In this document: positions 51,417 to 54,061 of the stretch, one piece after another
Numbering within the stretch: position 1 is the stretch's first letter
How the letters are laid out: each line of letters begins with the position of its first letter
Assembly: GCF_054482595.1 (NCBI RefSeq)
Contig: NZ_CM137008.1
Strand: one strand, 5' to 3'
DNA length: 64,000 nt
The notes under the pieces: model-generated
The model's input: only the letters and a program-made list of their open reading frames with translations
Database searches by the model: none
Told to the model about the DNA's origin: nothing
Program-made: the position numbers and the translations under genes

Positions 51417-51640
51417 CGGAAAGGTGGCGGGGGATTCACGGAGATAATATCTGTCTGAAATTATTTAGAATGCACCTGGTGCACTGCAAAGGAAAGGCAA
51501 TATTCCGTTCCTCCTCCTTGTCGTGAATACCCCAGGTATCTCACAATGTACACCGACTTACTCCGGGGCTGCCTGAACCACAAGATTGCTGTAGAATTGC
51601 CCCCAATGATTCAGGTCCAAACCAGGAAAATGGATTAAAA

Positions 51641-53212
51641 ATGACAAGTATTCAACAACGAGCAGAACTGCACCGCCAGATATGGCAAATTGCCAATGAT
51701 GTCAGAGGTTCTGTTGACGGATGGGATTTTAAGCAATACGTTCTGGGCGCGCTTTTCTACCGTTTTATCAGCGAAAATTTTTCCAGCTATATTGAAGCCG
51801 GTGATGACAGTATCTGTTATGCGAAACTGGATGACAGCGTAATTACTGATGACATTAAAGACGATGCCATCAAAACTAAAGGCTACTTCATCTACCCAAG
51901 TCAGCTTTTCTGCAACGTAGCTGCGAAAGCAAATACCAATGACAGACTGAATGCAGATTTAAACAGTATCTTCGTTGCTATCGAAAGTTCTGCTTACGGT
52001 TACCCTTCAGAAGCTGACATCAAAGGTTTGTTTGCTGATTTCGATACCACCAGTAACCGCCTGGGTAACACCGTTAAGGATAAAAATGCCCGCCTGGCTG
52101 CGGTTCTGAAAGGGGTTGAAGGGTTAAAACTTGGTGACTTCAACGAACATCAGATTGACCTGTTCGGCGATGCCTATGAGTTCCTGATTTCTAACTATGC
52201 GGCGAATGCTGGTAAGTCAGGCGGCGAGTTTTTTACACCGCAGCATGTCTCTAAGCTGATTGCACAACTGGCTATGCACGGGCAGACCCACGTTAACAAA
52301 ATCTACGACCCAGCCGCAGGTTCCGGTTCGCTGTTGTTACAGGCGAAAAAGCAGTTTGATGACCATATCATCGAAGAAGGCTTTTTTGGTCAGGAGATCA
52401 ACCATACGACCTATAACCTGGCGCGTATGAACATGTTTTTGCACAACATCAACTACGACAAGTTTGATATCAAGCTGGGCAATACGCTGACTGAGCCGCA
52501 CTTCAGAGATGAAAAACCGTTTGATGCCATCGTTTCTAACCCGCCGTATTCAGTGAAATGGATTGGCAGCGATGACCCGACGCTGATTAACGATGAGCGT
52601 TTTGCCCCGGCTGGCGTCCTGGCCCCCAAATCAAAAGCTGACTTCGCGTTTGTATTACATGCGCTGAACTATCTTTCGGCCAAAGGTCGCGCCGCGATTG
52701 TCTGCTTCCCGGGTATTTTTTACCGTGGCGGCGCAGAGCAGAAAATCCGTCAGTATCTGGTCGATAATAACTATGTCGAAACCGTGATTTCACTGGCACC
52801 GAACCTGTTCTTTGGCACCACCATTGCCGTAAACATTCTGGTGCTGTCTAAACATAAAACGGATACCAAAGTTCAGTTTATTGACGCCAGCGAACTGTTC
52901 AAAAAAGAGACTAACAACAATATCCTGACCGATGCCCATATCGAACAGATTATGCAGGTATTTGCCAGCAAGGAAGATGTTGCTCATCTGGCGAAATCTG
53001 TTGCGTTTGAGACTGTTGTCGCGAATGACTATAACCTGTCGGTGAGCAGCTATGTGGAAGCGAAAGATAACCGCGAAATTATCAATATTGCTGAACTGAA
53101 TGCAGAGCTGAAAACCACGGTCAGCAAAATCGACCAGTTGCGTAAAGATATTGATGCAATTGTGGCTGAAATTGAAGGCTGCGAGGTGCAGGTAATGACT
53201 CCAACTTATTGA
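51641..53212 (+). CDS. hsdM: Type I restriction-modification N6-adenine DNA methyltransferase subunit HsdM, 3' end replaced by IS1 (native sequence ends 53190)
   Basis: HsdM N-terminal domain ([20 protein letters not shown]), motif [11 protein letters not shown], motif IV NPPY; last 7 codons and stop are IS1 inverted-repeat sequence. Confidence 0.85.
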
Positions 53213-53709
53213 TAGTGTTTTATGTTCAGATAATGCCCGATGACTTTGTCATGCAGCTCCACCGATTTTGAGAACGACAGCGACTTCCGTCCCAGCCGTG
53301 CCAGGTGCTGCCTCAGATTCAGGTTATGCCGCTCAATTCGCTGCGTATATCGCTTGCTGATTACGTGCAGCTTTCCCTTCAGGCGGGATTCATACAGCGG
53401 CCAGCCATCCGTCATCCATATCACCACGTCAAAGGGTGACAGCAGGCTCATAAGACGCCCCAGCGTCGCCATAGTGCGTTCACCGAATACGTGCGCAACA
53501 ACCGTCTTCCGGAGCCTGTCATACGCGTAAAACAGCCAGCGCTGGCGCGATTTAGCCCCGACGTATCCCCACTGTTCGTCCATTTCCGCGCAGACGATGA
53601 CGTCACTGCCCGGCTGTATGCGCGAGGTTACCGACTGCGGCCTGAGTTTTTTAAATGGCGGAAAATCGTGTTGAGGCCAGCGCCCATAATGCGGGCGGTT
53701 GCCCGGCAT
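53206..53709 (-). CDS. insB: IS1 InsB reading frame (transposase made as InsAB' fusion by frameshifting)
   Basis: [67 protein letters not shown]. Confidence 0.93.
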
Positions 53710-53903
53710 CCAACGCCATTCATGGCCATATCAATGATTTTCTGGTGCGTACCGGGTTGAGAAGCGGTGTAAGTGAACTGCAGTTGCCATGTTTTACGGC
53801 AGTGAGAGCAGAGATAGCGCTGATGTCCGGCAGTACTTTTACCGTTACGCACCACCCCGTCAGTAGCTGAACAGGAGGGACAGCTGATAGAAACAGAAGC
53901 CAC
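53628..53903 (-). CDS. insA: IS1 InsA (91 aa)
   Basis: [45 protein letters not shown]. Confidence 0.95.
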
Positions 53904-54061
53904 TGGAGCACCTCAAAAACACCATCATACACTAAATCAGTAAGTTGGCACCATTACCCAAAAATACATGCAACTAAAACAGGGTTATTTACAGACAAAT
54001 TTAAAATTAGCTGAAAGTTAATATTATTTTTTCGGAGCCTTTTCTGGCCCCGAATATTGCT

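Follow-up and report, generated by a model that had tools for sequence, protein, structure and literature searches.

The hsdM gene described here belongs to a decayed type IC restriction-modification (R-M) operon in a tRNA-Ser genomic island of Escherichia coli and is not part of a complete system. We consider hsdM to be a remnant left behind when 4,637 bp were deleted right up to the end of the neighbouring IS1, most likely by its transposase. The probability of this reading is estimated at roughly 0.8.

The window, i.e. the whole stretch of 64,000 nt that was analysed, shows 100% identity to E. coli THO-010 (NZ_AP022540.1) in its segment 36000-44000 (8 kb compared), and THO-010 was taken as its source genome throughout. 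Window positions correspond to the positions of this record minus 2,850,116, and the RefSeq features agree with the offset. Positions 1-41365 represent the core chromosome of E. coli, running from flg via csg to ghrA. A tRNA-Ser(GGA) gene, serX, was predicted by ARAGORN at 41373-41460 on the plus strand. It forms the left boundary of the ~41.5-kb genomic island that holds hsdM. The annotation of THO-010 gives the order ghrA, tRNA-Ser, island, integrase and ycdU, whereby the integrase end falls outside the window. The island is found at either of two identical tRNA-Ser(GGA) genes, serX or serW. In SMS-3-5 the match is limited to window positions 41366-64000 and the left flank differs.

The island backbone consists of DUF4942, CbtA/YeeU, an antirestriction protein, Ag43 (47287-50208) and a YeeP-like GTPase with the Pfam domain MMR_HSR1. 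The GTPase gene is located at 50505-51416 on the minus strand (50505-51377 for the CDS in RefSeq) and is the divergent upstream neighbour of hsdM, as a first-pass annotation of this DNA had proposed. Past the backbone, hsdM, IS1 and a polysaccharide gene cluster riddled with insertion sequences follow in this order.

The hsdM ORF comprises 523 aa and extends from 51641 to 53212 on the plus strand. It is a fusion, as seen from Pfam, NCBIfam, the PDB match and an alignment of the junction: residues 1-517 (51641-53191) are native HsdM, while VMTPTY and the stop are read from the IS1 end. Pfam finds HsdM_N (PF12161, E=7.6e-17) and N6_Mtase (PF02384, E=4.2e-121), and the ORF matches TIGR00497 (hsdM) at the equivalog level with 646.7 bits at a cutoff of 242.75. 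The translation contains motif I (DPAAGSGS) as well as motif IV (NPPY). The N-terminal domain and the two motifs had been recognised correctly from the sequence in the first place.

The alignment to the EcoR124II M protein runs end to end with three substitutions, i.e. 514/517 residues (99.4%) are identical, covering residues 3-519 of 520 in PDB 7bst_D (E=0). Type I R-M families are delimited by how similar their sequences are and by whether their subunits complement one another. The ORF is assigned to the type IC (EcoR124-family) HsdM subunits by its sequence identity to the EcoR124II prototype. Compared with full-length HsdM, 517 of the 518 residues are native and the sole loss is the codon of Lys518 together with the stop. 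The C-terminal region binding the HsdS coiled coil is retained, up to residue 517/518. The earlier description of a 3' end replaced by IS1 holds insofar as the IS1 end supplies the tail, but it is overstated for the loss of one codon and the stop.

The intergenic region between the GTPase gene and hsdM (51417-51640, plus strand) is the presumed hsdM-hsdS promoter region and aligns to intact loci without gaps. These 224 bp as well as the hsdM coding sequence are colinear with intact systems and ~97-98% identical to them. A simple sigma-70 scan revealed no consensus promoter upstream of hsdM. It is plausible, judging from the unchanged upstream region, that hsdM would still be transcribed.

The IS1 (IS1B-like, 768 bp) is located at 53191-53958 on the minus strand and is the sole IS1 copy in the window. 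It has terminal inverted repeats and contains insA (53628-53903, minus strand, 91 aa) and insB (53206-53709, minus strand, 167 aa) with a programmed frameshift, in line with the RefSeq entry [quoted passage not shown]. The insB-distal end of the element abuts hsdM. Alignment with intact loci indicates that the native ...GAG GTG CAG AAA TGA has become ...GAG GTG CAG-GTA ATG ACT CCA ACT TAT TGA, the hyphen marking the junction. The six terminal codons and the stop lie entirely inside the IS1 end. A seventh codon had been ascribed to IS1 before. This is Gln517 (CAG), of which the third base alone is the first G of IS1, identical to the native base. In the native overlap the hsdS ATG lies within the hsdM end (A-ATG-A); the junction is located 4 bp ahead of it. 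As already stated in the first-pass annotation, no target-site duplication is found at IS1: the 9 bp on either side, CGAGGTGCA and CAAAAATAC, bear no relation to each other. An IS1 lacking the duplication of roughly 9 bp is expected if a rearrangement came after the insertion.

On its right side IS1 borders a Klebsiella-type O1 locus (53959-57191), which defines the fixed IS1 junction. It encodes a wbbY-like two-module glycosyltransferase (54062-56284, minus strand, GT4 and GT2 modules in Pfam) and the pyruvyltransferase wbbZ (56382-57191, plus strand, PS_pyruv_trans in Pfam, full-length match to PDB 6x1l with E=1.1e-183). The assignment of wbbY and wbbZ to a Klebsiella-type O1 locus follows PMC10629545. 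The GC content is 36-43% downstream of IS1 compared to 43-50% in hsdM, which agrees with the AT-rich glycosyltransferase locus described from the sequence earlier. In EC17CM12 wbbYZ is lost, adjoining ISKpn26. IS1 activity was also considered as the source of the C21-type rearrangement and was rejected, as this inversion is bounded by ISKpn26 copies.

Both hsdS and hsdR, which a complete type I R-M system comprises, are missing at the locus. Using intact type IC HsdS and HsdR as queries, neither blastn nor tblastn gave a match to them in the 64,000-nt window. The same holds true for 49 kb of the same island from SMS-3-5, a segment which overlaps the window and reaches past its right end. Moreover, neither gene is annotated in the RefSeq record of THO-010 within window positions 1-64000 and the remaining island. 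The claimed absence on either side of hsdM is thereby borne out and extends beyond the end of the window.

In homologous islands the divergent GTPase gene is followed by hsdM-hsdS-hsdR, with hsdS starting in an ATGA overlap with the hsdM stop. Intact hsdM (518 aa), hsdS and hsdR (1038 aa) lie next to the divergent GTPase gene in e.g. Y5 and FDAARGOS_1259, and the GTPase-hsdM pair occurs in S115, TST3 and the serW island of THO-010 as well. The closest intact loci examined are ~97-98% identical to the window in the GTPase-hsdM segment. Type IC operons are common in general: at least 80% of one is found in 1,136/5,426 complete E. coli genomes, on chromosomes and plasmids.

In 56 complete E. coli genomes, hsdR is followed by an IS1 at a distance of exactly 146 bp, with the boundary between ...CTCAATTTGCA and GGTAATGAC. 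They include TST3 and strain 2452, and the GTPase protein of TST3 is identical to that of the window. To the right of IS1, these strains carry a transposase remnant, then other remnant IS genes and a porin gene. S115 combines the left junction hsdMSR-146 bp-IS1 with the exact right junction of IS1 and wbbY seen in the window (...CATTAC(C/T) followed by CAAAAATACATGC...). It shares the island backbone of the window and differs from it at 2 positions in ~5.5 kb to the right of IS1. The window hence equals the S115 arrangement minus 4,637 bp, namely the last hsdM codon, hsdS, hsdR and the 146-bp spacer. When a deletion of this length was simulated in S115 between two TGCAG copies, the result agreed with the window junction in 30/30 nt. 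At least 60 complete E. coli genomes carry the deleted form, in which hsdM adjoins IS1, with identities of 99.6-100%.

These findings uphold two central claims made from the sequence alone, i.e. an IS1-associated deletion instead of a simple insertion, and a remnant of a system whose hsdS and hsdR were removed. The intact locus to be looked for in related strains exists in Y5, FDAARGOS_1259, S115 and TST3. The alternative of a full-length HsdM with IS1 merely adjacent applies in its first half, HsdM being essentially full length. IS1 however is not merely adjacent, since hsdS is missing from its very start, along with all that followed it.

From the antirestriction gene to hsdM, S115 contains a diverged patch that is ~96-98% identical to the window in an otherwise near-identical island. 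Recombination has hence taken place in one lineage, and S115 could be a recombinant rather than the ancestor. A direct ancestor was not found; loci with the hsdM allele of the window (at least 99% identity) all bear the deletion.

An adjacent deletion mediated by the IS1 transposase is the most likely cause of the loss, as deduced from the end states. The ancestral island would have had the order GTPase, hsdM-hsdS-hsdR, 146 bp, IS1. By transposing intramolecularly into the boundary of hsdM and hsdS, the IS1 end would have removed everything from the last hsdM codon to the spacer, flush with the left end of IS1. Such an event would retain IS1 and its other junction and leave no target-site duplication. 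A deletion flush at the IS end, a kept IS with its other junction and a missing duplication together form the signature of an adjacent deletion. Missing target-site duplications typically result from adjacent deletions or from IS-IS recombination, and the former proceed step by step from an IS that stays in place (PMC11708052).

Recombination between two IS1 copies would yield a final sequence that looks just like that of a transposase-made adjacent deletion. A second, directly repeated IS1 would have to insert at the hsdM/hsdS boundary and undergo RecA-dependent recombination with the IS1 downstream of hsdR. This would excise hsdS-hsdR and one IS1, leaving one IS1 with unrelated flanks, so that the product is exactly the same and lacks a target-site duplication. 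IS-IS recombination is a recognised cause of this lack (PMC11708052), and IS1 is abundant in the carrier genomes with 6-40 matching places per chromosome. Moreover, the IS1 of the window differs from that of S115 in a cluster at IS1 positions 355-435, which shows an exchange between IS1 copies. However, this course requires an extra insertion event, and an intermediate with IS1 between hsdM and hsdS does not occur among the records listed, about half of the 60 bearing the junction. We regard it as possible but unlikely.

The sequence at the deletion junction, TGCAG (53187-53191, plus strand), has to be considered as well. TGCA also represents the 4 bp to the left of IS1 in the undeleted arrangement, i.e. 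it is the same before and after the deletion, a coincidence with a chance of ~1/256 under the transposase model. As TGCA is present in both states, the loss can equally be described as running from one TGCAG pentamer to another 4,637 bp away, the first at hsdM codons 516-517 and the second spanning the boundary of spacer and IS1. A microhomology deletion by replication slippage, independent of the transposase, would explain the unchanged 4 bp, and deletion between the S115 copies yields the window junction exactly. Nevertheless the right endpoint must then land on the IS1 terminus by chance, which we estimate at ~1 in 1000, and IS1-promoted adjacent deletions are far more frequent than slippage at 5 bp across 4.6 kb. 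Slippage is therefore a very unlikely origin of the junction.

Least credible is that no full system ever existed here and that an IS1-bounded wbbYZ/rfb module was transposed or cointegrated into the hsdM end, displacing hsdS-hsdR: the module does move, as it lies beside another IS1 at the unrelated site dsdC in BY63 and TUM1881 and also on plasmids, but the IS1 of BY63 is a different variant (93% identity) 100 bp further out, its right-hand IS1, a simple insertion, has a target-site duplication of its own (AAGATTGTA) and homology running past it, and S115 has the IS1-wbbY junction of the window together with intact hsdMSR. An IS1 composite transposon carrying wbbYZ/rfb, at which BY63 had hinted, was rejected on the same features of its right and left IS1 copies.

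Today hsdM stands alone in its island, though not in the genome of THO-010, and the term "solitary" used in the first-pass annotation applies to the island only. The serW island, 248 kb away, harbours an intact paralogous type IC locus with the GTPase gene and a complete hsdM-hsdS-hsdR, the HsdM of which differs from that of the window in 7/517 residues. Other carriers were evaluated by comparing a chimeric wbbYZ+hsdR query with a wbbYZ-only search, which gives counts rather than locations and refers to chromosomes only. No other chromosomal type IC hsdR-like sequence was found by this means in 18/29 chromosomes with a window-type wbbYZ region, SMS-3-5 included; 28/29 of these chromosomes are also listed with the junction of hsdM and IS1. 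In most other carriers, as far as their chromosomes are counted, hsdM would hence be a true orphan with no expected activity.

Type I methylation needs an M2S1 complex, and HsdM, having no target-recognition domain, depends on HsdS. By itself the window HsdM should be inert and should not methylate DNA without HsdS. Subunits within one type I family are interchangeable. Considering this and the serW system, it is most reasonable to regard the window HsdM as a spare subunit of THO-010. It could assemble with the HsdS of the serW system, as an essentially full-length HsdM may still be able to do so with HsdS supplied in trans. [quoted passage not shown]

It seems improbable that the orphan hsdM has been kept for work in trans with the HsdS of a co-resident island-borne type IC system, as in THO-010, or perhaps, by analogy, with that of incoming plasmid-borne ones. 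If so, a surplus of HsdM would shift assembly from the restriction complex towards the M2S1 methylase and thereby ease establishment or the exchange of type IC specificities. Plasmid-borne type IC operons are found at 809 plasmid places in E. coli. The one point that speaks for such a role is the intactness of the gene.

Taken together, the locus is a product of ordinary genome decay and not a new system; each component is of a known kind and already annotated by RefSeq. It represents a clean natural case of a defence locus eroded stepwise from a fixed IS1. In the annotation of at least 60 complete E. coli genomes this hsdM is given as an intact "type I R-M subunit M", but the gene is a non-autonomous remnant, which is to be counted neither as a defence system nor as the source of a methylation motif. 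Moreover, "solitary" subunits need to be viewed in the context of the whole genome, as a complete paralogue resides in the sister tRNA-Ser island in this case.

In comparison with known systems, the backbone to the left of hsdM has the same gene set and order as in CP4-44 / CP4-57-like islands of E. coli, which carry the YeeP-like GTPase, Ag43, the antirestriction protein and the YeeU/CbtA toxin-antitoxin. In contrast to those, the island of the window additionally has a type IC hsd locus and Klebsiella-type O-antigen cargo. The type IC systems EcoR124I and EcoR124II (plasmid R124, PDB 7BST and related) encode an HsdM 99.4% identical over 517 residues. Their gene order hsdM-hsdS-hsdR recurs in the sister loci of the window, including the overlap of the hsdM stop with the start of hsdS. 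The window locus itself lacks hsdS and hsdR, has the last HsdM residue exchanged for six residues encoded by IS1, and lies on the chromosome in a tRNA-Ser island, whereas EcoR124 is plasmid-borne.

With classical IS1-promoted adjacent deletions (general review PMC11708052) the locus shares the flush endpoint, the kept IS with its other junction and the absence of a target-site duplication. The stepwise series from a fixed IS is visible here as hsdR+146 bp adjoining IS1 (n=56) and hsdM adjoining IS1 (n at least 60 genomes). Unlike what is expected of transposase-made deletions, TGCA adjoins IS1 in both states. Solitary methyltransferases such as Dam and CcrM likewise have no cognate restriction gene nearby. 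However, Dam and CcrM recognise DNA themselves, while the window HsdM needs HsdS according to PMC2647291 and general knowledge, and its Pfam domain content is HsdM_N and N6_Mtase only. The hsdM of the window is thus a remnant or spare subunit and not an autonomous orphan methylase.

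The island that extends in the window from position 41373 to 64000, including the junction between hsdM and IS1, is 99.99% identical across strains and is located at serX in the source genome THO-010 and many others, while its counterpart in SMS-3-5 (L001), C21 (L012) and S115 (L011) is located at serW. Both are tRNA-Ser(GGA) genes and appear to represent alternative attachment sites. The occupation of serX in some strains and of serW in others implies that, once hsdS and hsdR had been deleted, the island changed its site by movement or exchange. Integrases of tRNA-integrated islands usually adjoin the tRNA; the tyrosine integrase of this island instead sits beside ycdU (THO-010 record 2931815-2933023), at the opposite end from the intact tRNA-Ser gene (41373-41460).

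In THO-010 itself serW is occupied by a second, paralogous tRNA-Ser island (record 3136362-3156033, corresponding to L014 1362-21033), which lies outside the window and holds a complete type IC hsdM-hsdS-hsdR locus adjoining that island's own YeeP-like GTPase. More defence-type genes, encoding an Hhe protein and DUF262 proteins, follow farther on.

The 4 bp to the left of IS1 read TGCA both in the deleted arrangement (window 53187-53191) and in the undeleted arrangement of S115 (L010 12259-12263). Such identity before and after the deletion has a chance of about 1 in 256 and is unexpected for a deletion made by the transposase. The window IS1 (53191-53958) and the S115 IS1 differ at 10 positions, nine of which are grouped at IS1 positions 355-435; the tenth falls on the terminal base, which reads C in the window copy and T in that of S115. 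The clustering suggests gene conversion among IS1 copies.

Further rearrangements of the cargo in sister strains have ISKpn26 copies at their borders, namely inversions in S115 (L011 25592-46472) and C21 (L012 14667-21067) and the loss of wbbYZ in EC17CM12 (L015 8630-9609). In all three strains hsdM is intact.

As cargo, this E. coli island contains Klebsiella O1-type O-antigen genes (window 54062-57191 and 62000-64000, running on past the window). A wbbY-like glycosyltransferase gene and wbbZ, the latter matching PDB 6x1l with E=1e-183, are both located within 54062-57191. The cargo also comprises a galactan-type cluster, which encodes glycosyltransferases and a DUF4422 protein and includes glf and ABC-transporter export genes; an IS256 remnant, ISKpn26, IS3 copies and IS903B break the cluster up. 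The same wbbYZ/rfb module is found beside dsdC, an unrelated chromosomal site, in BY63 (L004/L008) and TUM1881 (L005), where its left border is formed by another IS1 variant, which shows 93% identity and lies 100 bp farther outward. Plasmids such as pF3_13_1_3-1 also carry the module, with a differing gene order. Near-identical wbbYZ genes in E. coli are already on record (PMC10629545).
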